Assembly: GCA_964599875.1 (NCBI GenBank)
Contig: CAZRHE010000001.1
Coordinates: 59,411-123,410, forward strand
Direction: 5' to 3'
Source: an uncultured Bacteroidaceae bacterium
GTDB taxonomy: Bacteria; Bacillota; Clostridia; Christensenellales; CAG-917
Length of the DNA stretch: 64,000 bases
Part shown: positions 17,427-33,118 of the stretch, piece after piece
How the letters are laid out: every line of letters begins with the position of its first letter
How positions within the stretch are numbered: the first letter of the stretch is position 1
The notes under the pieces: model-generated
Databases searched by the model: none
The model's input: only the letters and a program-made list of their open reading frames with translations
Told to the model about the DNA's origin: nothing
Program-made: the position numbers and the translations under genes

Positions 17427-18038
17427 TTATTCGAAATCCTCTTCGTCTTCGATAGCGACGGAAGTTTTCGGCGTTTGAATACGTTTTGAAATTTTCACGA
17501 GCCCGCCGTAAAGAGCGATTATCGTGACGAAAGAACTGACGACGTGCACAAGGTCGAACCACAGCCCTCTGACGTAATAAAGGAGCCAATAGGACGCAAG
17601 ATTTTCATCGGGAATAAGTCCTATGACGCAGAGAGTGTCCGTGCAAGCGGACATAACCCCGAACAGCACGCTCCCGACTACGCCTATAATAGTCGCAAGC
17701 CACACGCGTTGTTTTTTTCTGAGGCACGCCCACGAAACGACGGCGAGCAAAGGCCAATAAATGAAGTATAAAATTATCCAACTCGGATATCCCGCGCTCC
17801 CGTAAATTGCGACTTCGACGGCGCAAAATACGAGGGTTGCGGGAAGTGCGTAGCGAAGTCCCCACGCAGAGGCAAACACGATGATAAGCACCGTAACCAC
17901 CTCCACGTTAGGGATAAAAGACAATGCGAATTTGAACGCCGTCAGCATACCCGCCATCAGCGCAACGCGTGCGACGTAAAGCGCACCCGAGCGCGCTTTC
18001 GCCTTTTTGTTATTTTTTGCGTTGTTCACATTATCCAT
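17427..18038 (-). CDS. ECF-transporter S-component-like membrane protein, putative cobalamin or corrinoid transporter
   Basis: 203 aa with about 6 TM segments. Lies 33 nt downstream of the riboswitch-controlled lipoprotein gene with no terminator between them. Confidence 0.5.
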   Translation of the reverse strand: MDNVNNAKNNKKAKARSGALYVARVALMAGMLTAFKFALSFIPNVEVVTVLIIVFASAWGLRYALPATLVFCAVEVAIYGSAGYPSWIILYFIYWPLLAVVSWACLRKKQRVWLATIIGVVGSVLFGVMSACTDTLCVIGLIPDENLASYWLLYYVRGLWFDLVHVVSSFVTIIALYGGLVKISKRIQTPKTSVAIEDEEDFE

Positions 18039-18071: not shown

Positions 18072-18635
18072 TTAATACGACATTTGCGCAAAGTAATAAC
18101 TTGCGCCGTCAACGATAGGAAGCGAAGACACGCCGACGCTCGAATAATAGAACGTAACGCCGCTGTGCTCAAGCGTCTGATAGCCGCCCGTAGGAGTGAA
18201 ATTCCAATCCGCGTCGTAAGTGCCGTTGAGTGTTTTATAGTTCGCGTCGTCTATCGTGTGGAACACGGATATATAATGCGTCGCATCGTAATAAAGGTCG
18301 TTGAGTTTGGTGATGAACGCGCCGTAACTTCCGCCTTGGAACGCAAACGCCGAAATCGAACTGCTCTCGACGAGGTCGCTCAAAACGTAGAACACTTTAT
18401 TTTCTTTCGTCGTCACGGAAATGGGGTCGTCGTCGCCGATATAAATCTTGATATTCTTTTCAAGGTCGTTCGCCTCGTATCCCGTAAGTTTGTCTTGCAG
18501 ACCGTTGATTTGTTGTTGAAGCTCGTCAATCTTGGATTGTCCGCCGTCGTTGCACGCAACGAAGAGCACCGAGCCCAAGCACAACACGAGTGCAAGCAAG
18601 GTTGCCACTAAAATTTTTGATAATTGTTTGGACAT
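18072..18635 (-). CDS. Lipoprotein under cobalamin-riboswitch control, possibly a DUF4430/transcobalamin-like corrinoid binder
   Basis: Lipobox VLFVAC. Start re-set to the ATG at 18635 (GGGAGG RBS). The GAFITKL...LPIVDGASYYF pattern is reminiscent of DUF4430 but unverified. Confidence 0.6.
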   Translation of the reverse strand: MSKQLSKILVATLLALVLCLGSVLFVACNDGGQSKIDELQQQINGLQDKLTGYEANDLEKNIKIYIGDDDPISVTTKENKVFYVLSDLVESSSISAFAFQGGSYGAFITKLNDLYYDATHYISVFHTIDDANYKTLNGTYDADWNFTPTGGYQTLEHSGVTFYYSSVGVSSLPIVDGASYYFAQMSY

Positions 18636-18720
18636 TAAAAAAACCTCCCGTCCTTTTAATCCGCTCCGAGAGGCAACGCGAAAGCGCACCTCCGCTTCCC
18701 TCCGAAACGGTTGTCTTTGT

Positions 18721-18875
18721 TTTCAGGCCGGTCTCCCGACTCGGACGACGTGGGTATCCGTCGGAGTGCCTTCCTCTTTCGAGTGGCATTATCTCATCAC
18801 TTCCTCACGGTAGCGGGGGCTGTGGCGGATTTGCACCGCTCTTCCCGATTATCTTGCTTTCGCAAGCACCTGAAA
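18721..18875 (-). promoter_or_regulatory. Cobalamin (B12) riboswitch aptamer
   Basis: Minus-strand sequence contains AATCGGGAAGAGCGGTGCAAATCCGCCACAGCCCCCGCTACCGTGA, then AATGCCACTC, then a B12 box GAGTCGGGAGACCGGCCTGAAA. P1 pairs TTTCAGG (18875-18869) with CCTGAAA (18727-18721). Downstream, CCUCUCG can pair with the RBS CGGGAGG. Confidence 0.9.
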
Positions 18876-18883
18876 CCTTATTT

Positions 18884-18912
18884 ATTCTATCACAACGCCC
18901 GATTCGTTGCAA
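18884..18912 (-). promoter_or_regulatory. Promoter of the riboswitch transcript
   Basis: TTGCAA, 17 nt, TGATAGAAT (extended -10). Predicted TSS lies a few nt before P1. Confidence 0.6.
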
Positions 18913-19834: not shown

Positions 19835-19857
19835 TCCCCCCTATTGCAACCAAACCG

Positions 19858-19886
19858 CCCCGTCCTTCCCGACGGGGTTTTCTTTT
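19858..19886 (+). terminator. Rho-independent terminator
   Basis: CCCCGTC-CTTCCC-GACGGGG followed by TTTTCTTTT. Confidence 0.75.
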
Positions 19887-20208: not shown

Positions 20209-22344
20209 TTATTCTGCGGTTTTGGGTTGAATGACGAGTTGAGTTTGGTCAATGACTTCATAGCGGACTTGGTTGTACGTCCAGCTTTGGCCGGCCTTGA
20301 AGAAAAAGTTTCCGTTTTGGAGATCGACTTTTTGATAATAACTTGCATTGTCTGCGGGTTCAATGTCGGAATACACGTAGATATGGAACCAGCACCAGGG
20401 AGTACCATTGACTTCGAGTTGAGTGAGGTCGAAACGAAGTTCGAACGCTCCGCCGCCTTCGGTCAAAACGGATGCGCCGGTGCCGTACCAGTGGGCGCTA
20501 TTGCCGTCTGCATGAATCTTGAGGCAAGGAATTTGATTACTGGTGCTACCCTTGACGACGAGAGTCAAACCGTTCGTGGTGTCAACGGAAATGGATTGAA
20601 CGTCGAATTGTGCATCGATGGTTTGAGGATAAATCTCCAAACCGTCGGCGGTATTGACACGATAACGCACGCCGTTGTATTCGACGTAGGAACCTGCCGT
20701 AATGAGTTCACCTCTTTGGACGTTTTCTTGTTCATGTGTTGCGTCATCTGCGGCATTTGCAACTTCGTAAGTCCAAGTATGGAAATAGTAAACCGAACTT
20801 TCGGTAGGCAAATCGGAGATAGGTGCTCTGAATTCGTATTTACCGAGGTCGGCTGCAACGTTTTCCCACCATCTTTCACCACCGCTGCTCAAAATGTGAA
20901 GTTTCACGCAAGGAGTGTCGGTAGGCATATCGCCTTTGACGACGAGAGTGGGAACGGTGCCCGTGGTGTCGAATTCGATGGAAGTGGTTGCCATTGCGGG
21001 AGTTGCTTTGGGTTGAATGACGAGTTGAGTTTTGTCGATAACTTCATAACGGACGCCGTTGTAGTCGACGAACGAACCTGCGGTGAATGCGGTTCCTCTT
21101 TCAAGGTCGAATCTGCCGTCGGGGTCTGCGAGTTTGTCGGCACCGGGATTTTCTTCGTTATAGGTGAAGATATGGAACCAGCACCAAGGAGTGTCGCTAA
21201 GTTGTGCTTCTACGACTTCTGCAAAGTCGAAACGACATTCGAATTTGCCGTCTGCTATGGTTCCGTTGTCGCCATAGAAATTCGCATCATTATTTCCGTT
21301 GGCATGAATTACGATGCCTTTCACGCTGGGTTGAGTGGTGCCTTTGACGACGAGTTCCGCTTTACCTTGAGTGAAATCGAGTTCGATGCTTTCAACGACT
21401 GCTTTGGGAAGTGCTTTCGCTTGAAGGACGAATTGATTTTGGTCTTGCACGGTGTATGCGACTTCGTTGTAAGTCACGCTCGTGCCGACTGCGACGTCAC
21501 CTCTTTGGAGGTTGCAAAGGTCACCGTCGGTGGTGAGAGGAGTGCTATCTTTGGTGGGATTTTCTTCCGCATACGGATAGATATGGAACCAGCACCAAGG
21601 AGTATCGTTGTGCACGGGGATTTCGGTGATTGCCATTTCAAAGCGATAGACGCCCGCGTACTTAGAGACGTTGTTGAAATAATAATTATATTTCGTGTCG
21701 TTGTAAGTTGCGTCGAAGTGAAGCATGACGTTGCCGATAGTTACGTCTTCGACTTCGGGAATCATACCCTCGACGACGAGAGTGGGAACGCCTTCGATGG
21801 TTTCGATTGCGATCGAATCTTCAACGACCTTTTTGACGTTCAACACGACTGCATCGACTGCGCCTGCCGCGATTTGGACGGTTGCATCGAAGTAACCGTC
21901 CGCCTTAACGGTGTAGGTGCCGAAAGGAACGATTTCGTTCGTGGTGAATTTGCCGTCCGCTATGGTTGCGGTGAAGGAATTCTTTTTGTAGCCGATGGTT
22001 ACGCTGACGCCGTTGAGTGCGGTTGCAGTGCCACCGTCGTTGCCACTGATTTCAAAACTGACGCCGATGCGGTCGATAACGTCGACTGCGTGTTGGCAAA
22101 CGTCGCATTTGCCGTCGCGATTTTCGTCTACGTGCGCGACTTTGGAATCGGGTTTGATTTCATCGTCGGCGGGGCAAGCGTACCAGTGATTGTCGCCATC
22201 GCTCTTGAGTTCGGTATAGTCGTGTTCATGCGCGGCGGGCGTGGGATCGGGAGTAGGATCTTTCGAATCGTTACACGCGAACAACACGCTCATGCAAAGC
22301 ACGAGGCACAAAACCAATACGAGTGCTTTAATTGTTTTTCTCAT
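20209..22344 (-). CDS. Surface lipoprotein: Ca-binding-like DENRDGKCDVC motif, CarboxypepD_reg-like domain, and four tandem PWCWFHIY modules
   Basis: Lipobox SVLFAC and AAAGGAGAA RBS. The 711-aa protein has four ~130-aa repeats, each ending in YNGVRYEVIDxTQLVIQPK-like strands. Confidence 0.8.
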   Translation of the reverse strand: MRKTIKALVLVLCLVLCMSVLFACNDSKDPTPDPTPAAHEHDYTELKSDGDNHWYACPADDEIKPDSKVAHVDENRDGKCDVCQHAVDVIDRIGVSFEISGNDGGTATALNGVSVTIGYKKNSFTATIADGKFTTNEIVPFGTYTVKADGYFDATVQIAAGAVDAVVLNVKKVVEDSIAIETIEGVPTLVVEGMIPEVEDVTIGNVMLHFDATYNDTKYNYYFNNVSKYAGVYRFEMAITEIPVHNDTPWCWFHIYPYAEENPTKDSTPLTTDGDLCNLQRGDVAVGTSVTYNEVAYTVQDQNQFVLQAKALPKAVVESIELDFTQGKAELVVKGTTQPSVKGIVIHANGNNDANFYGDNGTIADGKFECRFDFAEVVEAQLSDTPWCWFHIFTYNEENPGADKLADPDGRFDLERGTAFTAGSFVDYNGVRYEVIDKTQLVIQPKATPAMATTSIEFDTTGTVPTLVVKGDMPTDTPCVKLHILSSGGERWWENVAADLGKYEFRAPISDLPTESSVYYFHTWTYEVANAADDATHEQENVQRGELITAGSYVEYNGVRYRVNTADGLEIYPQTIDAQFDVQSISVDTTNGLTLVVKGSTSNQIPCLKIHADGNSAHWYGTGASVLTEGGGAFELRFDLTQLEVNGTPWCWFHIYVYSDIEPADNASYYQKVDLQNGNFFFKAGQSWTYNQVRYEVIDQTQLVIQPKTAE
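20212..21813 (-). repeat. Four tandem coding repeats (about 390-415 nt each) encoding the unassigned PWCWFHIY module
   Basis: Module boundaries are roughly 21813-21397, 21396-20989, 20988-20602 and 20601-20212. The near-identical nucleotide core ATGGAACCAGCACCA(A/G)GGAGT recurs at about 21583, 21182 and 20392. The third module is degenerate (YYFHTWTY). Confidence 0.8.
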
Positions 22345-22396
22345 AATTTGTTCTCCTTTATATTTTTTTATATTTTAGAGTTTAATCTCCAAATAT

Positions 22397-22903
22397 CTAT
22401 TGATTAACGTCGTTTTCTGCGATTTCGACATTTTCGGGCTCTTCGGATTCATCCGTATCGTCGGTGACGTCGGACAATGCGTACAAGCCCATATTCTTCC
22501 TCGACGCATACAGTGCAACCGCGCCTACCGCGTACGCCACGCCGATTACGAGCACGATGGAGGGCAAGAACCAATTCGTCCTTGTAAGCGTTATGGAGTG
22601 CGGATCGTCTTTGTATCTGCCGTTAAGCGTAGTGCCTACGCTGAAGTTCGACGGATAGTCTTCGAGTACAGCCTCCACCCTTTCGCCGTCCGCGTTTACG
22701 TATTCGACCTTTATGCTCTCTATCGTGACGCCCTCTTCTCCGTCCGCATTTTCGACGACGCTCACTTCGGTTATCGTGCAAGCGACTTCGACGTAACTCT
22801 TATCCTTTGCGGCGGTGAAAGAGAGGTACACTATTCCGCCTATGGTTTGAAGGACGGATATCACGATGAGGACTATGAACAAGGTCTTGAACCGTTTTTT
22901 CAT
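22397..22903 (-). CDS. Two-TM membrane protein with DUF3592-like topology and an acidic C-terminal tail
   Basis: Start re-set to the ATG at 22903 (ATGA overlap with the GH30 stop). N- and C-terminal TMs flank a beta-rich segment. Confidence 0.5.
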   Translation of the reverse strand: MKKRFKTLFIVLIVISVLQTIGGIVYLSFTAAKDKSYVEVACTITEVSVVENADGEEGVTIESIKVEYVNADGERVEAVLEDYPSNFSVGTTLNGRYKDDPHSITLTRTNWFLPSIVLVIGVAYAVGAVALYASRKNMGLYALSDVTDDTDESEEPENVEIAENDVNQ

Positions 22904-24225
22904 AGCAACACGGTGACTATGGATTGTCCTTCGAGTGTCAAACCGAAGACCTTTCCGTCCACGTCGATATTCGTTTTGACGTCGCGTTTGCCGACGTTCA
23001 AAATCACTATCGCAAGACTTCCGTCGGGGTTTTGATACGCGGTTTGATAAATCTCGCTCACGCCGCCCGAACTGAATACGCGTTTCGCGCCGGGTTCGAT
23101 GAATTTCGAGAAGTGCGCGATATGCCAATAACTCGGCTTGAAGTTGATTCCGCCCTTGCCGTCGAGCATAATCGGCGCTTCACAGAAGTTGCCTTTATGG
23201 TTGGGGCCGCCGTTTTCGTCGAGCACCAAATTCCAGTCGATATATCCCTCGGACCAGTTGTTGAGATCGTTGATGATTTGAAGTGCGTAACGCTGACCGT
23301 TTTCCCAAAGTCCCGCTTCGACGGGGAGCCCTGTCGTCGAGTCGTAAGCAAGTTCGACGCAACATTCGGTGAGAAGAATATGTAGGTCGGGATATAGCGT
23401 GTGCAAGTTGGATAGATTTTCGTATCTGTCGCAACAATACCAGTGATATCCAACACCCCAAACGTGTTCTTTCACGCCGTCGATTGAGAGGGTGTCTATC
23501 GTCCTGCGCACTACTCTGTCGCGGTTGTGGTCCCAAAGGTAGAATTTGACGTCAAGACCGTGACGCTTGAACGCAGGAGCAAGATATTCGCTTATTTCTC
23601 TACCCTCTTCGAATGCGTCCACTTCTCTCGATTCCCAACGCTGAATCGCCTCGGGTTCGTTTTGCACGGCGACGTATTTGACGTCTATTCCGCGTTTTTT
23701 GAGTTCGCATAGATAGCGAGAATAATATTCCGCCCAAAATTCGCGATATTCGTCTTTGAGTTTTCCGCCCTCGTTCATATTGCCGTTAGTCTTGGCAAAC
23801 GCGGGAGGGGACCACGGCGCCGCAAAAAAGGTAATTTCGCGTTTCGCCGTATCCATACAACGCTTGACGAGAGGCAATCTTGCCTTATCCTCGACTTCGA
23901 GGCTGAACGTGTCGATATCCTCTCCGTTCACGTAAACGTAACTTTCGGGAGAAAAGTCGGAGGAATGCACGGTGAGCCTTGCAAGGTTATAATTCAAGCC
24001 GTCTTCCGAGAAGTATGCGTCCACGATTTTTTTCTTCACGGCGTCGTCGCACGCCTCGTAGCATGCGACCGTCGAATCCGTGAACGCTCCGCCGAAACCG
24101 AGGTGCGTTTGATATTTGATATCCGTGCGCACGACGATATCGTTGACGATGCCCTCGAAGATATTTTCCGCGGGGACTTCTTTGAGCCTATCCCCGCTGT
24201 TTGAAGTTTTGATTATTTTTGCCAT
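22900..24225 (-). CDS. Glycoside hydrolase family 30, cytoplasmic (no signal peptide)
   Basis: FGGAFTDS, PWSPPAFAK, acid/base context VAVQNEPEA and nucleophile context LLTECC. Confidence 0.8.
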   Translation of the reverse strand: MAKIIKTSNSGDRLKEVPAENIFEGIVNDIVVRTDIKYQTHLGFGGAFTDSTVACYEACDDAVKKKIVDAYFSEDGLNYNLARLTVHSSDFSPESYVYVNGEDIDTFSLEVEDKARLPLVKRCMDTAKREITFFAAPWSPPAFAKTNGNMNEGGKLKDEYREFWAEYYSRYLCELKKRGIDVKYVAVQNEPEAIQRWESREVDAFEEGREISEYLAPAFKRHGLDVKFYLWDHNRDRVVRRTIDTLSIDGVKEHVWGVGYHWYCCDRYENLSNLHTLYPDLHILLTECCVELAYDSTTGLPVEAGLWENGQRYALQIINDLNNWSEGYIDWNLVLDENGGPNHKGNFCEAPIMLDGKGGINFKPSYWHIAHFSKFIEPGAKRVFSSGGVSEIYQTAYQNPDGSLAIVILNVGKRDVKTNIDVDGKVFGLTLEGQSIVTVLL

Positions 24226-24231
24226 AGTTTT

Positions 24232-25686
24232 TTAGTTCTTCTCCGCTTGGATTACGAGTTGCATGGAGCCGCCGCTTCTTATGGAATAACGCACTCCGTC
24301 GTACACGAAACTTTGATTGATTTTGAGTTCGCTGCCTCTCGACAATTCCGAAGAATTTTCAGTGCTGATGCCTTCCTTGTAGGTGTAGATGTGGAACCAG
24401 CACCAAGGAGTGCTCGAATTGTAAGGAATCTTGGTGAGTTGCATCTTGAATTCGAACTTGCCGCTTTCCGTGCTCACGTTTTCGCTGTAATAGTGATGCT
24501 TTACTCCACCGAACTCCGCGTCGAAGTGCAAACGAACGTCCACGATGCCCTCCGAAGTGATTTCGCCTTTCACGACGAGAGTAGGCACGCCGTCGGTACC
24601 GGTTTCGATATCGATATAATCCACTCTGCAATCGCTGAATTCATAGTTAAGTTTGAGAATTTTGTTCCATTCTTTGAACTCGAACTTGACTTTGTCGTAA
24701 TCAAGCGTTTGCCACATATCCGCGGCGCTATCCGAAATTTCGCAGAGGTTGCCGAACGAAGTCGTGAGTTTGATATCGTACCAAATGCCCGCGCCTTTTT
24801 CGCTGATGACTTGAGAAATATCAACGGTCACGCTGAAATCATCCCCCGCACTTCCGCTCTTTGCTTCCCCGATAATTTCGAGAACTTTGCCGAGTTTTTC
24901 GTCCGGGCTGTAAAGTTCGACCGCGACTTCGCCGTCAGTGACGAATTTGCCGTCCACTTTGATATAGGGAGTGCCGTTTTCACTCATCATTTCGACTTTG
25001 ATATTCGAATACAAATTTTCGATGGTCGTGATGGGTGCGCTGATATATTTCACGATGCCGTTCTTTGCCGAAAGCACGACGAAGTAATAAGGCTCGCTTT
25101 CGTCGGGACTTACGTCGGTCGTGGAATCCACGCCGAAAATATTGACGTTTTGCGCAATAAGCGTCGCGTCGTCGCCGAAAACGAGAGAGGCACTTCTATA
25201 TACGGATTTGCCCGTAGGGTCGCAGAACGAACTCCAAGAAGTGCCGCTGACAAAGTTGTAGGAAAGCACCGCCGTGTTTGATTCGGTTTTGCTGAGTGCG
25301 GGCGTCATTTGAGGACGGGTAAGAGGTAAATTCGCCGTGTTGGAGCCGTCCACGACGGTGATATAGTAGGAATTGTATTTGACCTCTTCGGTGAATGCGT
25401 ACTTGCCGTCCACGACAGTGTATTCGACGGGATTGGAATCCGCCGTGATTTTTTCGTATCTGGTCACGTAAACCTTTGCGGTTGCGGAGGGCGCGATATT
25501 GCTTTCCACGACGTATTCGTACGTATTCGTGCCTTTTTGCGTGATTTGTACGCCGCTGATATCAAAGGACGTGTAGGGCTCTACCGTGTAGGTAGGGTCC
25601 GTCTTATCTTCGTTGCAAGCGAACAGGCAAACGGATAATATCGCGATAAGTCCTATCAGTAATACTAAACTTATTTTCTTTTTCAT
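24232..25686 (-). CDS. Surface lipoprotein ending in one PWCWFHIY module
   Basis: Lipobox CLFAC. The C-terminal ~130 aa (VPTLVVKGE...TPWCWFHIYTYKE...YDGVRYSIRSGGSMQLVIQAEKN) are homologous to the modules at 20212-21813. Confidence 0.8.
   Translation of the reverse strand: MKKKISLVLLIGLIAILSVCLFACNEDKTDPTYTVEPYTSFDISGVQITQKGTNTYEYVVESNIAPSATAKVYVTRYEKITADSNPVEYTVVDGKYAFTEEVKYNSYYITVVDGSNTANLPLTRPQMTPALSKTESNTAVLSYNFVSGTSWSSFCDPTGKSVYRSASLVFGDDATLIAQNVNIFGVDSTTDVSPDESEPYYFVVLSAKNGIVKYISAPITTIENLYSNIKVEMMSENGTPYIKVDGKFVTDGEVAVELYSPDEKLGKVLEIIGEAKSGSAGDDFSVTVDISQVISEKGAGIWYDIKLTTSFGNLCEISDSAADMWQTLDYDKVKFEFKEWNKILKLNYEFSDCRVDYIDIETGTDGVPTLVVKGEITSEGIVDVRLHFDAEFGGVKHHYYSENVSTESGKFEFKMQLTKIPYNSSTPWCWFHIYTYKEGISTENSSELSRGSELKINQSFVYDGVRYSIRSGGSMQLVIQAEKN
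24235..24633 (-). repeat. Fifth copy of the PWCWFHIY coding module
   Basis: Same nucleotide core GTGGAACCAGCACCAAGGAGT at about 24391-24411. A more degenerate copy may precede it (IKVDGKFVT...WYDIKL...ILKLNYEF). Confidence 0.7.
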
Positions 25687-25698
25687 AATTCACCTCTT

Positions 25699-27198
25699 TT
25701 AGCAAACGAAGGTCACGATACTTTGAGGTTGAAGTTCGAAAGTAACGTTTTGACCGCCGATGACGACGTGAACGTTTTCGGAGAGTTGGTCGGATATGTT
25801 GACCGCGCAAACGACGATTGCTCCGTCCGCTCTGTAAAGCGCGCACGCCATGATTTGAGATTCGTTTGAAGATATGGTTTCGAGTGCTTTTGCATATACG
25901 CCGTCGATTGCGTATGCAAACTTGCCTACGTGCGCCATTGCGTAATACGCACTGCGTTTGAAGTAGCCGTATTCTCCGTTTTCGTAGTCCATATCGAGAA
26001 CGCCGTAGCATTCGTTGCCGTGAGATATAGGCGTAGGCGAGCCGTCGGGACGAAGAACGAGATTCCAGAACATTGCGCCGTTAAGTCCGTAGTTAAGCGG
26101 GTCAATGGTGACGTAGGTCGCCGCATAGGACAGGTTTTTCGCAAAGTCGTTGGAGCCCGTATGCTCGGTGATTTCGGTCATGAAGATTTCCTTGTCGGGA
26201 TAATTGGTTTTGATATAATCGCAACCGTCCGAAATCGTGTACTCTTCTACACTGCCGTATCCGTGATACGCAAAGCCGTCCGCATTGGAAGTGCCGTCAA
26301 AGAGAGTGTCCGCATAGTCGAAAGCCAAATCATCCACGTTGTGTTCCCAACCGAGTATTTTGACGTTAAGGTTTTTTTCGTCGAGTTTTTCGGAGAGTTT
26401 ATTCACGAGTTTGATTGCCACGAGTTCGTTTATCTCCATATGGGGATAACTCACGTTTTTAATGTTGGGCTCGTTGACAAGGGAGAGATAATCGATATCT
26501 ATGCCTTCCGCCTTGTACGCCTCTACGAATTTGACGAGATATTTCGCATATACGTCGTAGCAGGAAACGTCGAGTTCGCTGTCGGTTTTAAGGTTGCTGC
26601 TTTCCTTCATCCAAGCGGGAGCAGACCAAGGGCATGCGAAGATTTTGACGTCGGGATTGATTGCGAGAATCTTTTTGAGGACGGCGATTATATTCGCGTC
26701 GTGCTCGATCGAGAAATGCTCGAGTGCTCTGTCGTCATCGCTTTCAGGGTCGTCGATATCGTCGCAGGTGAAGAACTCGTTTCCTTCGATATAGTCGCTT
26801 GCACCGATGGGGATACGCACCAAACCGAGATTCGCGCCGTCCTTGCCGTAAAGTTCGTTGAGCATTTCATCCGCGGTTGCACTTGCACCCTCTTGCATAA
26901 GAAGATACGCGGAAGAGTGAGTGAGGGACGCGCCGTAGCCGTAGAAGTCTTGTTTCTTTTTTTCGGTGTCAACTTGAACGACGACACCCGTTGCTTCGAG
27001 GCTGTCGAGATTGTCGTACGCGCTGAATTTGAGTGAAGTTTGTCTTGCCATAAGTTTGGACATGGTGCCCGTAGTCACGTACACGTCCGCATAAGTGCGA
27101 CTGCGCGATTCTTTTTCGTTGCAACCCGCAAAGCACACCGCTATGCTCGTTGCAAGCACGAATACGCAGACAAGAAGTGCAATTCTTTTAAGTTTCAT
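25699..27198 (-). CDS. Secreted or lipid-anchored glycoside hydrolase family 30
   Basis: Lipobox CFAGC. YGYGASLTHS, PWSAPAWMK, acid/base context LSLVNEPNI and nucleophile context IFMTEITEH. Confidence 0.8.
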   Translation of the reverse strand: MKLKRIALLVCVFVLATSIAVCFAGCNEKESRSRTYADVYVTTGTMSKLMARQTSLKFSAYDNLDSLEATGVVVQVDTEKKKQDFYGYGASLTHSSAYLLMQEGASATADEMLNELYGKDGANLGLVRIPIGASDYIEGNEFFTCDDIDDPESDDDRALEHFSIEHDANIIAVLKKILAINPDVKIFACPWSAPAWMKESSNLKTDSELDVSCYDVYAKYLVKFVEAYKAEGIDIDYLSLVNEPNIKNVSYPHMEINELVAIKLVNKLSEKLDEKNLNVKILGWEHNVDDLAFDYADTLFDGTSNADGFAYHGYGSVEEYTISDGCDYIKTNYPDKEIFMTEITEHTGSNDFAKNLSYAATYVTIDPLNYGLNGAMFWNLVLRPDGSPTPISHGNECYGVLDMDYENGEYGYFKRSAYYAMAHVGKFAYAIDGVYAKALETISSNESQIMACALYRADGAIVVCAVNISDQLSENVHVVIGGQNVTFELQPQSIVTFVC

Positions 27199-27209: not shown

Positions 27210-29045
27210 TTAAAAGAGTATTGTTTCGCCGCTCTCAACGCCGACGCGGGCGTTGTCGAGGTCTATTGCAAGGCGCGCGGTTTCACCGACGGTGAGTACG
27301 CCTTCGACGTAAATTTTTTCGTTGCCGATTTCGACGACGGAATACTTCTTTTCGCCGTAATCCGCAACCGACGCGACTTTGACGTCTATCGTGGGATAAC
27401 ATTCGTTTTCTCTTGCGAGCCTCACGTTAGAGGTTGAGAGATATAAGGAATATTTATCCTTGAATATCTTTTTGCCGAGGCGATACATTTTTTTGTTAAA
27501 TTCGTAATACGCCTCAATCTCTCTGCCGTCGCCGAAAACGAGATAGTGCTTTAATATAGTTTTGTTATCCTCTTTGACTTTGCGCTTTTCGTATTTGAAG
27601 ACGATGCGAGAAGTTTCGCAGACCGCCTCGACGACCGCCGACCCGATGATTTCGAGTTTGCTCACGTCAAGACCGAAAGAGGTTTTATCCGAGAAATCTC
27701 CGAGCGCAAACAAGTCTTCTCCGCCCGCGCGGACGATAGAAACTTTGCCGTCGGGCGTGCCGATAACTCGTTTCGTCGCAAGGGGAATATCTCCGTCCGT
27801 AAACGCACCGACGGGAACCACGACTTGCACTTTTCCGTCTTCGACAGCGCTTGCCTGTTGTTCCGCCAATTTAACGGTTCCGCCCAAAATATGCAGTTTA
27901 TCCGCCTTTTTCGTGCAGTTAATCGTCTTTTTCTGCGAATATTGCGGCATAAGCGTTTGTTCGGTTTCGCCGTCGAAAACGTGAAGTCTGCTCACGTCTG
28001 CATAAAGGGTCATGCTTTCGTCCGTCGCTTCCGTTCCGCTTGCGCCGTAGCCGACTATTTCCGCTCCGTTGATTCTTCCGTGGAGCACGGTATGCGTGCA
28101 AAGTTCTTCGACGACTTCAACGGGCACGTCGAGTTCGACGTCAGTCGCGCGTCTGCGAGAAGTCGTGACGTCTTCGGGGCGCAGACCGACCGTGATTTTT
28201 TTGCCGTCTATGAGCGCGCTTTCGTCGAAACGAAGTTTAAGTTCACCGTCGAGCGGGAAATCACCGACGACGGTTTTTGCGACGAGTCCGTTTTCGCCGA
28301 CGCTCAAAGTGCCGTCCCAAAAGTTCATTTGAGGACTGCCGATGAAACTTGCGACAAACTTGTTCGCGGGATAGTTGTATAGGTATTCGGGAGAGCCCGT
28401 TTGCATAATGCAACCGTCCCTCATCGCCACTATGATATCTCCCATCGTCATCGCTTCGGTTTGGTCGTGGGTGACGTACACGAAGGTCGCTTTAAGACGA
28501 TGATGCAGGGCAAGGATTTCTCCCCTCATCTTTGCGCGAAGTTTTGCGTCGAGGTTCGAAAGCGGTTCGTCGAGAAGGAACAAATCGGGCTGACGCACGA
28601 TTGCTCTGCCGAGTGCGACGCGCTGTTTTTGCCCGCCCGAAAGTTGGGAGGGCTTTCTGCCGAGATACTCTGTCAAATTGAGCATTTCGGCGACGTTTTC
28701 CACTCTCTCCTTTATGACCGCCTTATCCTCTCCGTGCATACGAAGTCCGAAAGAAATGTTGTCGTAGACGTTCATATTCGGGAAGAGTGCGTAACTTTGG
28801 AACACCATGGAGATATTTCTTTCCTTAGGCGGCAAGCCGTTTACAAGTCTGTCCCCGATATAGATATCTCCCGAGGTGATTTTTTCAAGTCCCGCAATCA
28901 TACGAAGAGCGGTACTCTTTCCGCAACCCGACGGACCGACGAACACGACGAATTTTCCGTCCTCTACGTCAAGGCAGAAATCTTTCAGTGCGTGCACTCC
29001 TCCGTCGTATATTTTGTTTGCGTGGAATAATTTTAATCTAGCCAT
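27210..29045 (-). CDS. MalK/UgpC-type sugar ABC ATPase with a ~235-aa C-terminal extension (611 aa)
   Basis: GPSGCGKST, LSGGQKQR and LFLLDEPLSNLD. The normal TOBE-type end (LHVFDGETEQTL at about aa 375) is followed by another ~235 aa ending in a TOBE-like ARLAIDLDNARVGVESGETILF. Confidence 0.8.
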   Translation of the reverse strand: MARLKLFHANKIYDGGVHALKDFCLDVEDGKFVVFVGPSGCGKSTALRMIAGLEKITSGDIYIGDRLVNGLPPKERNISMVFQSYALFPNMNVYDNISFGLRMHGEDKAVIKERVENVAEMLNLTEYLGRKPSQLSGGQKQRVALGRAIVRQPDLFLLDEPLSNLDAKLRAKMRGEILALHHRLKATFVYVTHDQTEAMTMGDIIVAMRDGCIMQTGSPEYLYNYPANKFVASFIGSPQMNFWDGTLSVGENGLVAKTVVGDFPLDGELKLRFDESALIDGKKITVGLRPEDVTTSRRRATDVELDVPVEVVEELCTHTVLHGRINGAEIVGYGASGTEATDESMTLYADVSRLHVFDGETEQTLMPQYSQKKTINCTKKADKLHILGGTVKLAEQQASAVEDGKVQVVVPVGAFTDGDIPLATKRVIGTPDGKVSIVRAGGEDLFALGDFSDKTSFGLDVSKLEIIGSAVVEAVCETSRIVFKYEKRKVKEDNKTILKHYLVFGDGREIEAYYEFNKKMYRLGKKIFKDKYSLYLSTSNVRLARENECYPTIDVKVASVADYGEKKYSVVEIGNEKIYVEGVLTVGETARLAIDLDNARVGVESGETILF

Positions 29046-29055
29046 ACTCTCCCCC

Positions 29056-29976
29056 TTAACCCTTGACGGCTCCGTCCATATTTCCGCCGAGAATGAACTT
29101 CTGCAAGAAGAAGAACGCGACTATCATAGGTGCGGACACCATGACCGCGCCCGCAAGCATGACGGGGAACGTGTTCGCGTCGTAACCGCCGTTGTACATA
29201 AGATTTCCGAGAGAAATCGCAAGAGTGTAGTTTTCTTCGCTCGTCAACGCAATCAACGGCCAGAGGAAGTTGTTGTAATTCCACATAAACGTCGTGATTC
29301 CGAGGACGATGAGAGTGGGTTTAACGATGGGCAGACACACCTTGAAGTAAACTCTGAAACTGCCCGCGCCGTCAATAAACGCCGCCTCTTCGATTTCCTT
29401 TTCGACCGCCATAAACTGCTGTCGCAGCAGGAACACGTTGTACACGCTCATCACGAACGGCAAAATTAACGCCCACAGAGTGTCGTACATGCCGAGGAAT
29501 TTGATGATGATGAAGTTGGGGATGAGCATAACGCACCCCGGTATCATCATAGACGTGAGGGATATAAGGAAAATTTTATCTCTGCCCGCGAATTTCATAC
29601 GCGCGAACGCATATGCCGAGAGAGAGTTCAAAAACAAGTTGACGACGGTGTTCACCACGCACACGATGATCGTATTCATGAACACCGTAGGAATGTTGAG
29701 TTCAATCCAAGCATCCTTGTAGTTGTCGAGGACAAAGTGGATATTTCCCAATTCATCTCTCGGCATAAACGAGAAAGTGTTGAATGCGTCGGGAGTTTTG
29801 AAAGAGGACAGCACGAGCCAGAGATAAGGAATGATGAACAGCAACGCGATAAAAATAAGCACGCCGTACACCCCTATTCTACCCAAAATATGGGATACGC
29901 TGTATCTTCTTTCAAAACGGAGTTTGCCGTATCTTTGAGGTGCGATAGGTTCCGCACAATTGAAATTATCTATCAT
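29056..29976 (-). CDS. Carbohydrate ABC transporter permease (MalG-like)
   Basis: 306 aa, 6 TM, with the EAA-type loop EEAAFIDGAGSFRVYFKVCLP. ATGA-coupled to the upstream permease. Confidence 0.85.
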   Translation of the reverse strand: MIDNFNCAEPIAPQRYGKLRFERRYSVSHILGRIGVYGVLIFIALLFIIPYLWLVLSSFKTPDAFNTFSFMPRDELGNIHFVLDNYKDAWIELNIPTVFMNTIIVCVVNTVVNLFLNSLSAYAFARMKFAGRDKIFLISLTSMMIPGCVMLIPNFIIIKFLGMYDTLWALILPFVMSVYNVFLLRQQFMAVEKEIEEAAFIDGAGSFRVYFKVCLPIVKPTLIVLGITTFMWNYNNFLWPLIALTSEENYTLAISLGNLMYNGGYDANTFPVMLAGAVMVSAPMIVAFFFLQKFILGGNMDGAVKG

Positions 29977-30893
29977 TTGGCAAACCTCCTTTTGTTTTTA
30001 GGCTTCGGATTCGCACCGATTACCGAGCGGAACTGGATGAGGGTAAGTCCCAAGAGTAGCAGGAACAAAATGAAGGACATCGCAGAGCCCGCGCCGATAG
30101 TGCCTATCGTGGGATTTATCTGCTCGTACACCCCGAAAACGAAAGTGTACGTCGAATAATTCGGCCCTTTCCCCGTCATCAAGTACATTTGTTCGAATGC
30201 TTGGAATCCGCCGATGATTCCCGTCACGGTGAAGAAAGACACCGTCGGCATAACGCCGGGGACTGTTATCGACCAGAACTGTTTGAACGCGCTTGCGCCC
30301 TCTATGGACGCCGCCTCGTACAAAGAACGGTCTATATTCTTCATCGCCGAAAGCATTATGAGGACGTTATATCCGAGTCCGCCCCATATCGACATAACCG
30401 CAAGGATTACAAGGTTCCAACCTTCCGTATACAGTAGGTTTATCTCCACTCCGAGCAGTTTATTGATAAGTCCCGCGCCCGGGTCGAGCATAAACGCCCA
30501 CAACGCGGTCACCGCAACGCTTGCGGTGACGGACGGGACGTAAAACGCCGTCTTGAAGAATCTCTCCCCTTTCACTTTCGTGTTGAGAAGAGCGGATACC
30601 GCAAGCGCAAGCAATATGTTCATAGGGACGGTCAGGAGGATATATTCCACCGAAACCAGTATGGATTGCCAAAAATGCTCGTGCGCGTTGTTTTTATTCG
30701 CCAACACCGCCACGTAGTTGTCAATGCCTACCCAATTGAAACTGCTGCTCACGCCGTTGTAGTCCGTGAAACTTATGATGAGCGCAATCAGCATGGGCGC
30801 CAATTGGAACACCAAAAAGTACGCGATGAGCGGCGAAACGAACAATAAACCTTGCGCGTTGCGTTTCAGTTTAATTTTCTGCTTCCTTTCCAT
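29973..30893 (-). CDS. Carbohydrate ABC transporter permease (MalF-like)
   Basis: 306 aa, 6 TM, with the EAA-type loop YEAASIEGASAFKQFWSITVP. Confidence 0.85.
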   Translation of the reverse strand: MERKQKIKLKRNAQGLLFVSPLIAYFLVFQLAPMLIALIISFTDYNGVSSSFNWVGIDNYVAVLANKNNAHEHFWQSILVSVEYILLTVPMNILLALAVSALLNTKVKGERFFKTAFYVPSVTASVAVTALWAFMLDPGAGLINKLLGVEINLLYTEGWNLVILAVMSIWGGLGYNVLIMLSAMKNIDRSLYEAASIEGASAFKQFWSITVPGVMPTVSFFTVTGIIGGFQAFEQMYLMTGKGPNYSTYTFVFGVYEQINPTIGTIGAGSAMSFILFLLLLGLTLIQFRSVIGANPKPKNKRRFAK

Positions 30894-30896
30894 AAA

Positions 30897-32153
30897 TTAC
30901 AGAGTAATGTTTTGTTTTGCAGTGCTTTGAGCCTTATCAAGTGCGGTTTTGACGTCTTTGCCGTTATCGATAATATCCGCGAGTGCGTCGGCAAGGTACA
31001 AGTCGTTGACCTTCATCCAGCCTGCCACGACGGGACGCGCGGACGCGCTTTCGAGTTGTTCGAGGACGACTTTCATGGTGTCTTGCAACGCTTGAGAATA
31101 TTTAGCACCCGTGATGGGGTCTTCGGTTCTGACTTTCGCATACGCCTTGATTGCGGAGAAGTTGTTTGCGATTGCAGTGTTCACGTTTTCTTCTTGGAGA
31201 AGGAATCTGATGAGTTGTTTGCATGCGTCGACGTTCTTTGTATTCTTGTTGATTGCGACGTTTTCTCCGCCGATGTTAGAATAACGTTCGCCGCCTTCAT
31301 TTTCAGAGATAAACAAAGACGCACCGAGTTTGTTTTCGCAGAAAGAGGGATTGTTGGTGAAGTAGTTGTAAATATCCGCGTTGTGCGCAAGCACGAACAT
31401 AACGTTTCCGTTGGTGAATGCATTGCTCGATTCACGCACGTTTTTGGGAGATTTGCTGTAAAGGTCTTTAATCATTTGACCCGCGCGGATCCCCGCTTCG
31501 TTGTTGAAAACGATTTGATTGCCCGAAATCATTTCTCCGCCCGCGCTCTTAAGGAATGCTTGGAAATACCAACTTGCATAACCGCCGGTGCCGATTCCGC
31601 CGAAGAGTGCCTTACCGCTACCGGGATTAAGCGAAAGCCATTCGCTCCAACTCTCGGGGACTTCGGTCACGAGGTCTTTGTTGTAAAGAATGATGCTCGT
31701 CGTGAGGGAGAAAGGCACTGCGTAGATATTGCCGTTGTATCTAATCGTATCCACAGCGACGTCGTAGAAATCGCTCAAATGCAATCCTTCTTCACCGTCC
31801 GCCGCGAAGAAACCTTCGTTGAGGTTGAGGCAGTACTCCGAAAAAGTGCCGAGCATGGGTTGGTCGAGGAAGAACACGTCGGGTTGTTTATCCGACATCA
31901 TGCTGGTTTGGATTTTCGTGTTGTAGTTATCCTTCGGCACGTAGGTAGGCACGACTGTGATTCCCGTTTGCTCGGTGAATTTTTCAAGCATTTCGTTGTA
32001 CGCCGTTTTCGCCTTGTTGTTCGCGGGAGAATACAACATAAGTCTGATGGTGTTGGGGTCGTTATCCGCGTCGTTGTTGCACGCGACGAGTAGCGTCGCA
32101 AGTGCGGCTACGACCATGATAATCGCAAGGAAAATTGCAATTTTTCTCTTCAT
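30897..32153 (-). CDS. Extracellular solute-binding lipoprotein of the sugar ABC importer
   Basis: Start re-set to the ATG at 32153 (GGAGGAAATT RBS). Lipobox LLVAC. The track start at 32423 adds 90 Arg-rich aa that overlap lacI. Confidence 0.8.
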   Translation of the reverse strand: MKRKIAIFLAIIMVVAALATLLVACNNDADNDPNTIRLMLYSPANNKAKTAYNEMLEKFTEQTGITVVPTYVPKDNYNTKIQTSMMSDKQPDVFFLDQPMLGTFSEYCLNLNEGFFAADGEEGLHLSDFYDVAVDTIRYNGNIYAVPFSLTTSIILYNKDLVTEVPESWSEWLSLNPGSGKALFGGIGTGGYASWYFQAFLKSAGGEMISGNQIVFNNEAGIRAGQMIKDLYSKSPKNVRESSNAFTNGNVMFVLAHNADIYNYFTNNPSFCENKLGASLFISENEGGERYSNIGGENVAINKNTKNVDACKQLIRFLLQEENVNTAIANNFSAIKAYAKVRTEDPITGAKYSQALQDTMKVVLEQLESASARPVVAGWMKVNDLYLADALADIIDNGKDVKTALDKAQSTAKQNITL

Positions 32154-32164
32154 AATTTCCTCCG

Positions 32165-33118
32165 TTAAGCCGAATGACCGACGGTCAGTTTCGGCAATAT
32201 TTTTATTTGTTTCGGCTCGTCGCCGTTGATCAACTCCATTATCGTGTCCGCAAGACGCACGCCGACTTCGTAAAGCGGTTGCTTGACGGTTGTCAGTTTG
32301 GGACTTGCGACCGCCTCGTGTCCGAATCCGTCGAATCCAACGACCGCCATATCGTCGGGGACGGAAATTCCTTCTTCGGACAGCGCGCGCATACAGCCTA
32401 TCGCCATGGTATCCGTCGCGCAAACTATCGAATCGAGTTTCACTCCTCTTTCAATCAGTTCTTTTGCAGCGGCGTATCCGCCCGCCTCGCTTGCGTCGCC
32501 GAACGAAATCTTGTTGTCGCGGACTTCGTATCCGCCGTTTTTCAAAGCGTCCTTATATCCGTTCAAACGCTCTTCGCCGTAGTGCATCTTTTGCGGAGCG
32601 CAGATTGCTCCCACGTGTTCGTATCCCTTTTCAAGAAGATATTCGACCGCTATTTTTTCTCCGTAGTAGTTGTCTACGTCCACCCACGAGGGATAATTTT
32701 CGTTGTTTCCGTACAGCACGACGGGCTTATCCGAACTTTTCATCGCAAGCAACGCTTTCTCTTCGTCGTGGGAGAGTCCCATCACGATTATCCCGTCGAA
32801 ACTCTCGTCGTCGGGCAGATTTCGGCTGAGTAGAATGGAATATCCGCATTCTCCCAGTCTTTCTCCGATTGCCGTAATCGTTTGCGACACGAATTGCTCG
32901 GTTGCGGACAACGCTTTCGGCACGTACACGAAGACGATATTCGTGCACTTGCGCGCGAGCGAGCGCGCAACCTTATTAGGATGATAGTTGAGTTCCTCGG
33001 CGGCGGACAAAATGCTTTCGAGGGTTTCGGGCTTGACAAGGTCGGGAGAATTGAACGCTCTCGACACCGTCATCACGGAAAAACCCGTCCTATTTGCAAT
33101 ATCCACTATCGTCGCCAT
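32165..33118 (-). CDS. LacI-family transcriptional regulator
   Basis: N-terminal HTH MATIVDIANRTGFSVMTVSRAFN followed by a periplasmic-binding-fold sugar sensor. Confidence 0.85.
   Translation of the reverse strand: MATIVDIANRTGFSVMTVSRAFNSPDLVKPETLESILSAAEELNYHPNKVARSLARKCTNIVFVYVPKALSATEQFVSQTITAIGERLGECGYSILLSRNLPDDESFDGIIVMGLSHDEEKALLAMKSSDKPVVLYGNNENYPSWVDVDNYYGEKIAVEYLLEKGYEHVGAICAPQKMHYGEERLNGYKDALKNGGYEVRDNKISFGDASEAGGYAAAKELIERGVKLDSIVCATDTMAIGCMRALSEEGISVPDDMAVVGFDGFGHEAVASPKLTTVKQPLYEVGVRLADTIMELINGDEPKQIKILPKLTVGHSA

Follow-up and report, generated by a model that had tools for sequence, protein, structure and literature searches.

Tandem beta-sandwich accessory modules on the surface lipoproteins of glycan-utilization loci are of a familiar kind. 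How polysaccharides are held at the cell surface is far less understood for gut Clostridia than for the Bacteroides Sus paradigm. A closely comparable system from Bacteroides thetaiotaomicron is the beta-1,6-glucan polysaccharide utilization locus (PUL), in which the lipoprotein BT3313, a surface glycan-binding protein (SGBP) encoded beside BT3312, has several immunoglobulin (Ig)-like domains and binds beta-1,6-glucan with a Ka of ~5e5 M-1 (PMC5481569). The present analysis concerns a gene cluster in a 64,000-nt stretch of DNA from an uncultured Christensenellales bacterium (contig CAZRHE010000001.1, positions 59,411 to 123,410 of the forward strand; “the window” means this whole stretch). The cluster lies on the minus strand at ~33.1 to 20.2 kb of the window, tightly packed and on a single strand throughout, and it encodes two lipoproteins, A and B, that carry copies of a ~130-aa module, together with two glycoside hydrolase family 30 (GH30) enzymes, an ATP-binding cassette (ABC) importer, and a LacI-family regulator. 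What is new here is a module family that lacks database annotation, and a putative Gram-positive counterpart of the SGBP.

With moderate confidence, we read A and B as multivalent surface glycan-capture lipoproteins that would feed a surface endo-acting GH30, most likely on fungal-type beta-1,6-glucan. This reading is favored because the logic of the operon is the same as that of the Bacteroides beta-1,6-glucan PUL, built from unrelated parts and with an ABC importer. The locus thus parallels the Bacteroides PUL in uncultured Christensenellaceae/Oscillospiraceae-like bacteria.

Comparison with the Bacteroides beta-1,6-glucan locus

The likeness to BT3313 lies in a lipoprotein with multiple Ig-like domains whose gene is next to that of a surface GH30 endo-glucanase, and it extends to the locus as a whole, where a regulator, an importer, and an exo-glucosidase are present as well. 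Features by which an SGBP is recognized are a lipoprotein signal, which A and B have, and a gene beside that of a surface endo-glycanase in a co-regulated catabolic locus, as in the window and in 11 further loci. There is no detectable sequence relation to BT3313, and neither DUF5016 nor any other Ig-family Pfam model is matched at E<=1. The two systems also differ in cell type and in import: BT3313 belongs to an outer-membrane SusC/D system, whereas the window encodes an ABC importer with a solute-binding lipoprotein in a Clostridia-type cell of the Gram-positive lineage, so that the SusC/SusD partner of a typical SGBP is replaced by an ABC system. Glycan binding has been measured for BT3313, but it is inferred for A and B. 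CAZy describes a carbohydrate-binding module (CBM) as lying within a carbohydrate-active enzyme (CAZyme); A and B have no catalytic domain, while two relatives, P0025 and a protein of locus L015, are GH30 fusions.

Tandem modules in lipoproteins A and B

Lipoprotein A (711 aa, 20209-22344; this and all other genes described here are on the minus strand) is encoded by the last gene of the operon. It consists of a signal peptide with a lipobox at Cys24, a Cys/His-rich motif, one small beta domain, and four tandem modules. A profile hidden Markov model (HMM) was built from the five copies of the module in the window, four in A and one in B. Searching with this profile places the A modules at aa 175-316, 317-452, 453-580, and 582-711, with domain E-values of 1e-52 to 2e-60 for the five window copies, in agreement with an earlier interpretation made from the DNA letters (the sequence-only reading), which had proposed four tandem modules in A. 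The family HMM detects no further copies in any other reading frame of the window. Module A1 (21397-21822; domain E 2e-60) has the core TPWCWFHIYPY, A2 (20989-21396; 2e-58) has TPWCWFHIFTY, and A4 (20212-20601; 1e-54), the copy used for the structure model, has TPWCWFHIYVY. The sequence-only reading had assigned a TPWCWFHIY core to every module; this fails for A3 (20602-20988; 1e-52), which carries the variant core SVYYFHTWTY. A3 lacks the Trp-x-Trp core, as do the modules at the same position in the homologues P0005 and P0003.

Lipoprotein B (484 aa, 24232-25686) ends with the same module, as had been claimed. This module, B-D4 (B aa 355-484, 24235-24624), has the core TPWCWFHIYTY, a domain E-value of 1e-56, and a probability of 100% in an hhalign comparison with the family. 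It had also been suspected that a degenerate module precedes the last one. The profile-profile comparison supports this suspicion for B-D3 (B aa 221-352, 24631-25026), which aligns with the module family over 107 columns at 94.1% (E 1.3e-7) and has GAGIWYDIKL in place of TPWCWFHIY; the family HMM alone does not reach it (domain E 3.5). The two beta domains before it, B-D1 and B-D2 (B aa ~38-220, 25027-25575), carry a stretch, GTSWSSFCDPxGK, that is nearly invariant in an alignment of 54 B-type proteins. They are unrelated to the module (hhalign 2.4% and 0.3%) and have no Pfam match. The D1-D2 pair defines a protein family of its own, with ~55 clusters at 90% identity, whose members lie between two GH30 genes in every locus inspected.

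The conservation of the Trp-Cys-Trp core had been said to reach the nucleotide level, with the 21-mer ATGGAACCAGCACCAAGGAGT occurring four times. Four matches are indeed present at <=2 mismatches, against 0 expected, but the 21-mer is exact only at 21172 and 21583 and has one mismatch at 20383 and 24391. The DNA repeats are confined to the conserved motifs, with 69-88% identity over ~50 nt and a spacing of one module. Recent duplication or gene conversion as the source of the common 21-mer is ruled out, since the DNA identity is limited to the motifs, and the sequences indicate that the array is an old tandem duplication. The modules of A are 48-63% identical to those at the same position in P0005, compared with 31-45% between the paralogous copies of the window, and the best match of A1 is the same-position module of P0005, at 63% identity. 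Given that each A module pairs best with the same position in P0005, the array is older than these species, and each position has been kept.

The Cys/His-rich motif of A (aa ~38-87, 22084-22233), read from the translations, comprises ~50 aa and follows the lipobox. Its sequence, HEHDY...HWYACP...HVDENRDGKCDVC, follows the pattern H.H.Y...HW..C...H.D.N.DG.CD.C. One or two copies are found in every A-type homologue read, and there is no match to the motif of A in Pfam or NCBIfam.

Predicted fold and conserved residues

The sequence-only reading had anticipated a beta-sandwich. An AlphaFold2 (AF2) model of module A4, computed from a 66-sequence alignment, supports this: it is all-beta with ten strands, and its confidence is high (predicted local distance difference test [pLDDT] 95.6, predicted template modeling score [pTM] 0.88). 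The module is thus predicted to be a discrete, independently folding domain of the beta-sandwich type. In the model, an Ig-like sandwich (residues ~1-80) appears to be combined with a C-terminal beta-meander of ~45 residues packed on top. Foldseek searches with the module against the Protein Data Bank (PDB) and BFVD found nothing that reached E<=1e-3; at the top of the lists stand generic sandwiches of the Ig, C2, and fibronectin type III (FN3) types, over ~85 residues with TM <= 0.43. A full-length model of B from 54 sequences (pLDDT 90.8, pTM 0.80) has four consecutive beta-sandwich domains, D1-D4. Foldseek matches it best to proteins with FN3/Ig domains in tandem, among them an adhesin extender region (6XI3), fibronectin, and cytokine receptors.

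Across 66 modules, the conserved positions are H30, Y39, N42, E54, W69, W71, H73, Y75, R96, Y109, N110, and Y114. Conserved residues also form rows, in the numbering of A4: an aromatic row, W69/W71/H73/Y75/Y77, and two polar rows, K28/H30/D32 and E54/R56/D58. The polar and aromatic positions are kept at 60-90% in the aligned modules.

Relation of the module to known families

The sequence-only reading could not assign the module to any family. In part this stands: neither Pfam nor NCBIfam has a family at threshold for A, for B, or for 66 single modules, and when PDB sequences were searched with two profiles, one of the entire module and one of its C-terminal third, only noise came back. It does not stand for the first ~75 residues of the module, where remote homology to the GBS Bsp-like repeat (PF08481) is detectable. 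Aligned with hhalign, PF08481 and the module family match at 94.5-94.8% (E 5e-8 to 8e-8) over ~72 columns (~6-81), and a reversed-sequence control gave 0.1%. The alignment sets the WFHIY.Y of the module on the ...tHvY.Y strand of PF08481 (...G.Y.tHvY.Y). In the Pfam scan, PF08481 is matched at E<=1 by neither A nor B nor any of the 66 modules, and a sequence search finds no solved structure for PF08481. Judged by these alignments, the first ~75-80 residues of the module are probably a remote homologue of the GBS Bsp-like repeat, and so a divergent member of an Ig-type superfamily.

Both are tandem surface repeats, PF08481 being that of streptococcal Bsp and of the Streptococcus suis autolysin Atl, but they differ in several respects. 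The homology is limited to the N-terminal 60% of the module. A PF08481 repeat has ~90 aa and ends after the HvY.Y strand, whereas the module has ~130 aa, with four further strands predicted at residues 90-128 with high confidence. PF08481 has neither the LHAD motif nor the ~45-aa C-terminal meander (RG...G...YNGVRY...QLVIQP), both of which are features of the module. Their partners differ as well: PF08481 repeats accompany amidase or peptidase domains, and the module stands on lipoproteins in a GH30 operon. In our reading, the last ~45 residues (DL.RG...G...YNGvrY.V...QLVIQP) were added to this core only in the module family and in some modules linked to GDSL esterase-family domains.

Two further families resemble parts of the module. 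Membership in CBM_5_12 (PF02839) was considered and rejected: the match in A reaches 25.8 bits against a cut-off of 26.2 and covers only profile positions 5-24 of ~44. It falls at aa 417-436, inside module A2. Among single modules, 5/66 match CBM_5_12 (best E 1e-3), and the chitin-binding domain of Bacillus circulans ChiA1 (1ED7) scores E = 0.99 in the PDB search. The resemblance is that of a ~20-residue hairpin, [FY]tAG..V.YNG..Y, to the core hairpin of CBM5/12; CBM5/12 is a free-standing 45-aa module, whereas in the window module the hairpin is one element of a larger fold. Similarly, the homologues P0006 and P0009 pass the Pfam cut-off for Glft2_N (PF17994) marginally, on summed score (28.7 and 27.9 vs 26.1 bits). 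This match to the N-terminal sandwich of GlfT2 is partial, covering module residues ~30-75, and is raised by the summing of repeats. A and B themselves have no PF17994 match in the Pfam scan, and the 50 PDB matches that Foldseek listed for the module do not include GlfT2.

Distribution, synteny, and gene fusions

An exhaustive HMMER scan of 1.84 billion representatives with the module profile returned 53 proteins, ~28 of which are true family members with 1-6 modules each; a word-index search with the five modules found a single fragment, P0001. The whole-protein E-values of such repeat proteins are inflated by the summing of near-identical repeats, and direct profile-profile comparison was therefore used. 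Every family member read starts with a lipoprotein signal (lipobox), and all named homologues are called “hypothetical protein”. The family genomes are metagenome-assembled and come from uncultured Clostridia, with depositor labels of Oscillospiraceae, Christensenellaceae, Christensenella sp., “Clostridia bacterium”, and, oddly, Corallococcus sp. Logan contigs hold 99%-identical copies of the window proteins. The family is confined to a narrow clade of uncultured Clostridia and essentially to one type of locus.

In the window, B lies between the two GH30 genes. The sequence-only reading had placed the lipoproteins between two GH30 hydrolases and the ABC importer; A instead follows the small membrane protein at the end of the operon. 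The surface GH30, a lipoprotein of 499 aa with the lipobox FAGC (25699-27198; Pfam GH30, 7e-28), has as its closest solved structure the BT3312 endo-beta-1,6-glucanase (5NGK, 9e-44), with the catalytic-Glu motifs NEP and TE aligned. The cytoplasmic GH30 (441 aa, 22900-24225; Pfam Glyco_hydro_30, 2e-59, plus GH30C) has no signal peptide. Among solved structures, SrfJ (2WNW, 9e-73) and human glucocerebrosidase (6e-57) come closest to it, placing it nearest to exo-acting enzymes of the glucosidase type.

The order surface GH30 (lipoprotein)-B-GH30 is conserved in 11 further loci (L004-L007, L009, L011, L015, and L017-L020). A scan for co-occurrence with GH30 using an HMM of the five copies had been suggested, and the same GH30/ABC/LacI operon is present in these 11 other loci; among the family members, P0028 is the one exception. 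Where the contig extends far enough, most of the loci have the LacI and ABC genes upstream and the small membrane protein and A downstream. The small membrane protein has a syntenic homologue in L004-L007; in L009, L011, L015, L018, and L020, a gene of comparable length without annotation stands in its place. Two loci lack A and have a GH3 nearby instead. In L005 (5603-7439), from a Christensenellaceae metagenome-assembled genome, the operon ATPase is split into open reading frames (ORFs) of 400 and 190 aa, probably by a frameshift in the assembly.

The number of modules is plastic, from 1 to ~7, yet the positions in A are kept as positional orthologues. The upper end is a 1259-aa B-type protein of L007 with about seven modules. 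Two relatives, P0025 (962 aa) and a 1025-aa gene product of L015, are fusions in which the B-type protein forms a C-terminal extension of the surface GH30. The C-terminus of an enzyme is the normal position of a CBM. The fusion of B to the surface GH30 is the behavior expected of a CBM-like accessory module. A minor irregularity concerns P0001 (161 aa; Logan contigs L001-L003 from SRR33013283, SRR33013275, and SRR33013278), an A-type fragment with modules 3-4 in a separate ORF whose stop is followed by further A-like coding sequence, as would be expected from a frameshift, a pseudogene, or a mistake in the assembly.

The weaker HMMER matches fall into two groups. The first consists of GBS Bsp-like repeat (PF08481) proteins with an Amidase_3 (peptidoglycan amidase) or Peptidase_C39-like domain (P0032 and P0027). 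The second consists of large Clostridia lipoproteins (P0030, P0031, P0035-P0038, and P0041) in which Flg_new, GDSL/SGNH esterase-family, and LamG-like domains are followed by arrays of ~125-aa modules. These GDSL-linked modules are like the window module in forming lipoprotein arrays, in their similar length, and in having no Pfam model, and some align with almost the entire module, at profile positions 13-125. They differ in standing beside a different enzyme domain and in being far more divergent; WYNVRIY and YFIRLY are examples of their cores. Distant relatives of the module lie on other surface proteins, among them amidases (P0032) and GDSL/SGNH esterase-family lipoproteins.

Function of the modules

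The gene content, lipoprotein signals, module architecture, predicted fold, conserved synteny, and fusions can be read directly from the data; glycan binding, its substrate, and its location on the module are what we infer. In the proposed mechanism, the surface GH30 lipoprotein would cut a beta-glucan, most likely fungal-type beta-1,6-glucan, while the tandem ~130-aa modules of A and B would keep the polymer at the cell surface beside the enzyme, with several weak module sites together giving useful avidity. Oligosaccharides would then enter by way of the solute-binding lipoprotein and the ABC permease, to be finished to glucose by the cytoplasmic GH30, and LacI would control the gene set. 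The module is a good candidate for a new CBM family.

Several observations weigh against a glycan-capture function on beta-1,6-glucan. The surface GH30 scores 207 bits on the NCBIfam BT3312 equivalog model, for which the cut-off is 700, which leaves its placement in GH30 subfamily 3 (endo-beta-1,6-glucanase), and with it the substrate, tentative. The most divergent family member, P0028, is encoded amid housekeeping genes, beside another unannotated protein and outside any CAZyme locus. All of the syntenic loci come from one narrow clade, so the link to GH30 is close to a single evolutionary event and not 11 independent ones. In the predicted structure, the interface of the sandwich with the C-terminal meander may bury the conserved Trp/His/Tyr row, which would then not be exposed. 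No known CBM model is matched, the likeness to CBM_5_12 being that of a 20-residue hairpin only, and the Foldseek matches of the modeled module and of B are only generic Ig, FN3, and C2 folds. The evidence is compatible with a binding module and with a structural stalk repeat alike. In addition, the only experimental partner reported for a GBS Bsp-like region in the literature found is a protein: in Streptococcus suis Atl, this region serves as an adhesin, with host vimentin as its partner (PMC9377611).

The main rival is that the modules are a passive stalk or spacer, that is, structural Ig-like beads that would project the D1-D2 head of B, the Cys/His motif of A, or the fused GH30 through and beyond the cell wall, with any glycan binding located elsewhere. 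We consider this rather unlikely. In its favor, B is a string of four beta-sandwich domains whose best structural matches are tandem FN3/Ig chains, the copy number of the modules is highly plastic, and A and B, being lipid-anchored at the membrane, require length to reach the outside. The near-invariant GTSWSSFCDPxGK of the B-type proteins, moreover, sits in D1-D2 and not in the module. However, spacer repeats usually conserve core residues only, whereas polar as well as aromatic positions are conserved in the modules, and each position of the array is maintained as a positional orthologue. The geometry is also awkward, since D1-D2 of B lies close to the membrane, whereas a projected head belongs at the far end, and A has no recognizable head besides its modules.

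Binding to the cell wall or another cell surface is improbable. Here, the modules would hold the GH30 machinery on the wall polymers of the cell itself, or would act as an adhesin on a fungal wall or a host surface. The remote homology to PF08481, the company that PF08481 repeats keep with Amidase_3 and Peptidase_C39-like domains in P0032 and P0027, and the vimentin binding by Atl are all consistent with such a role. Yet the homology is remote and extends over ~75 residues, with no module at the Pfam threshold for PF08481, and the lipid anchor already fixes A and B to the cell. That the modules are strictly tied to a catabolic operon, and are found fused to GH30, favors the substrate over the cell's own wall. 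An adhesin directed at the beta-glucan of a fungal wall would in practice be the same as the favored glycan-capture reading.

Least probable, and very doubtful, is a cohesin-like protein-protein scaffold in which the modules would gather the surface GH30 or the solute-binding protein, or bind one another, in a surface complex without contacting glycan. In its favor, A and B are lipoproteins co-transcribed with two others, GH30 and the solute-binding protein, the fusions show B acting next to GH30, and the pTM of B suggests fixed interdomain contacts. Against it, no partner motif was found on GH30 or the solute-binding protein, and fusion to GH30 makes non-covalent docking unnecessary, yet the modules are retained in the species with GH30-B fusions.

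A bolder form of the glycan-capture reading can be put forward only tentatively. In this form, the module would found a new CBM family whose composite fold, a GBS Bsp-like Ig sandwich plus the C-terminal meander, specifically recognizes beta-1,6-glucan or some other GH30 substrate; no surface glycan-capture lipoprotein would have been described before A and B for a beta-glucan locus of the Gram-positive type (Clostridia); and, by extension, the GBS Bsp-like superfamily would be a glycan-binding fold. If binding is true, it would provide, besides a new CBM family, a probe for fungal-type beta-glucans and a first functional handle on the GBS Bsp-like superfamily, whose function so far is anecdotal. 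If there is no binding, the module would still be a new and well-defined stalk repeat of the Ig-like type, ordinary in itself though of use for annotation.

Other features of the gene cluster

The first gene of the cluster encodes the LacI-family regulator (32165-33118; NCBIfam) and is preceded by a promoter-like site at 33413-33385, found in a promoter/terminator scan. It is followed by the gene for the solute-binding lipoprotein (30897-32153), an ORF of 418 aa counted from MKRKIAIFL, with the lipobox LVAC and matches to NCBIfam models of carbohydrate ABC substrate-binding proteins. Two ABC permease genes come next (29973-30893 and 29056-29976). They were assigned as ORFs with syntenic homologues that carry Pfam BPD_transp_1, and the homologues at the same position in the syntenic loci are 67-78% identical to the window proteins. 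The ABC ATPase (611 aa, 27210-29045) has a MalK-type nucleotide-binding domain (NBD) and an OB domain by Pfam. Pfam covers only aa 1-293 (NBD + OB) of the ATPase, and a C-terminal extension of ~240 aa (roughly aa 370-611) has no annotation; the length of the protein in the syntenic loci, 609-616 aa, is the same as in the window.

Four products of the cluster, A, B, the surface GH30, and the solute-binding protein, have a signal peptide with a lipobox Cys. The lipobox of A and B is LFAC, with Cys24 in both. Between the cytoplasmic GH30 and A lies the gene for the small membrane protein (168 aa, 22397-22903), an ORF whose start overlaps the stop of the cytoplasmic GH30 gene (ATGA). The protein has terminal hydrophobic segments and only a weak Pfam match, to DUF3592. 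Downstream of A, a GC-rich hairpin (19857-19878) stands between A and a convergent gene.

Beyond the cluster, a cobalamin riboswitch (RF00174, 97 bits) is found at 18709-18888 on the minus strand. It lies directly upstream of the genes for a ~187-aa lipoprotein (18072-18635) and a 203-aa multi-pass membrane protein (17427-18038), which may form a B12-regulated uptake pair.

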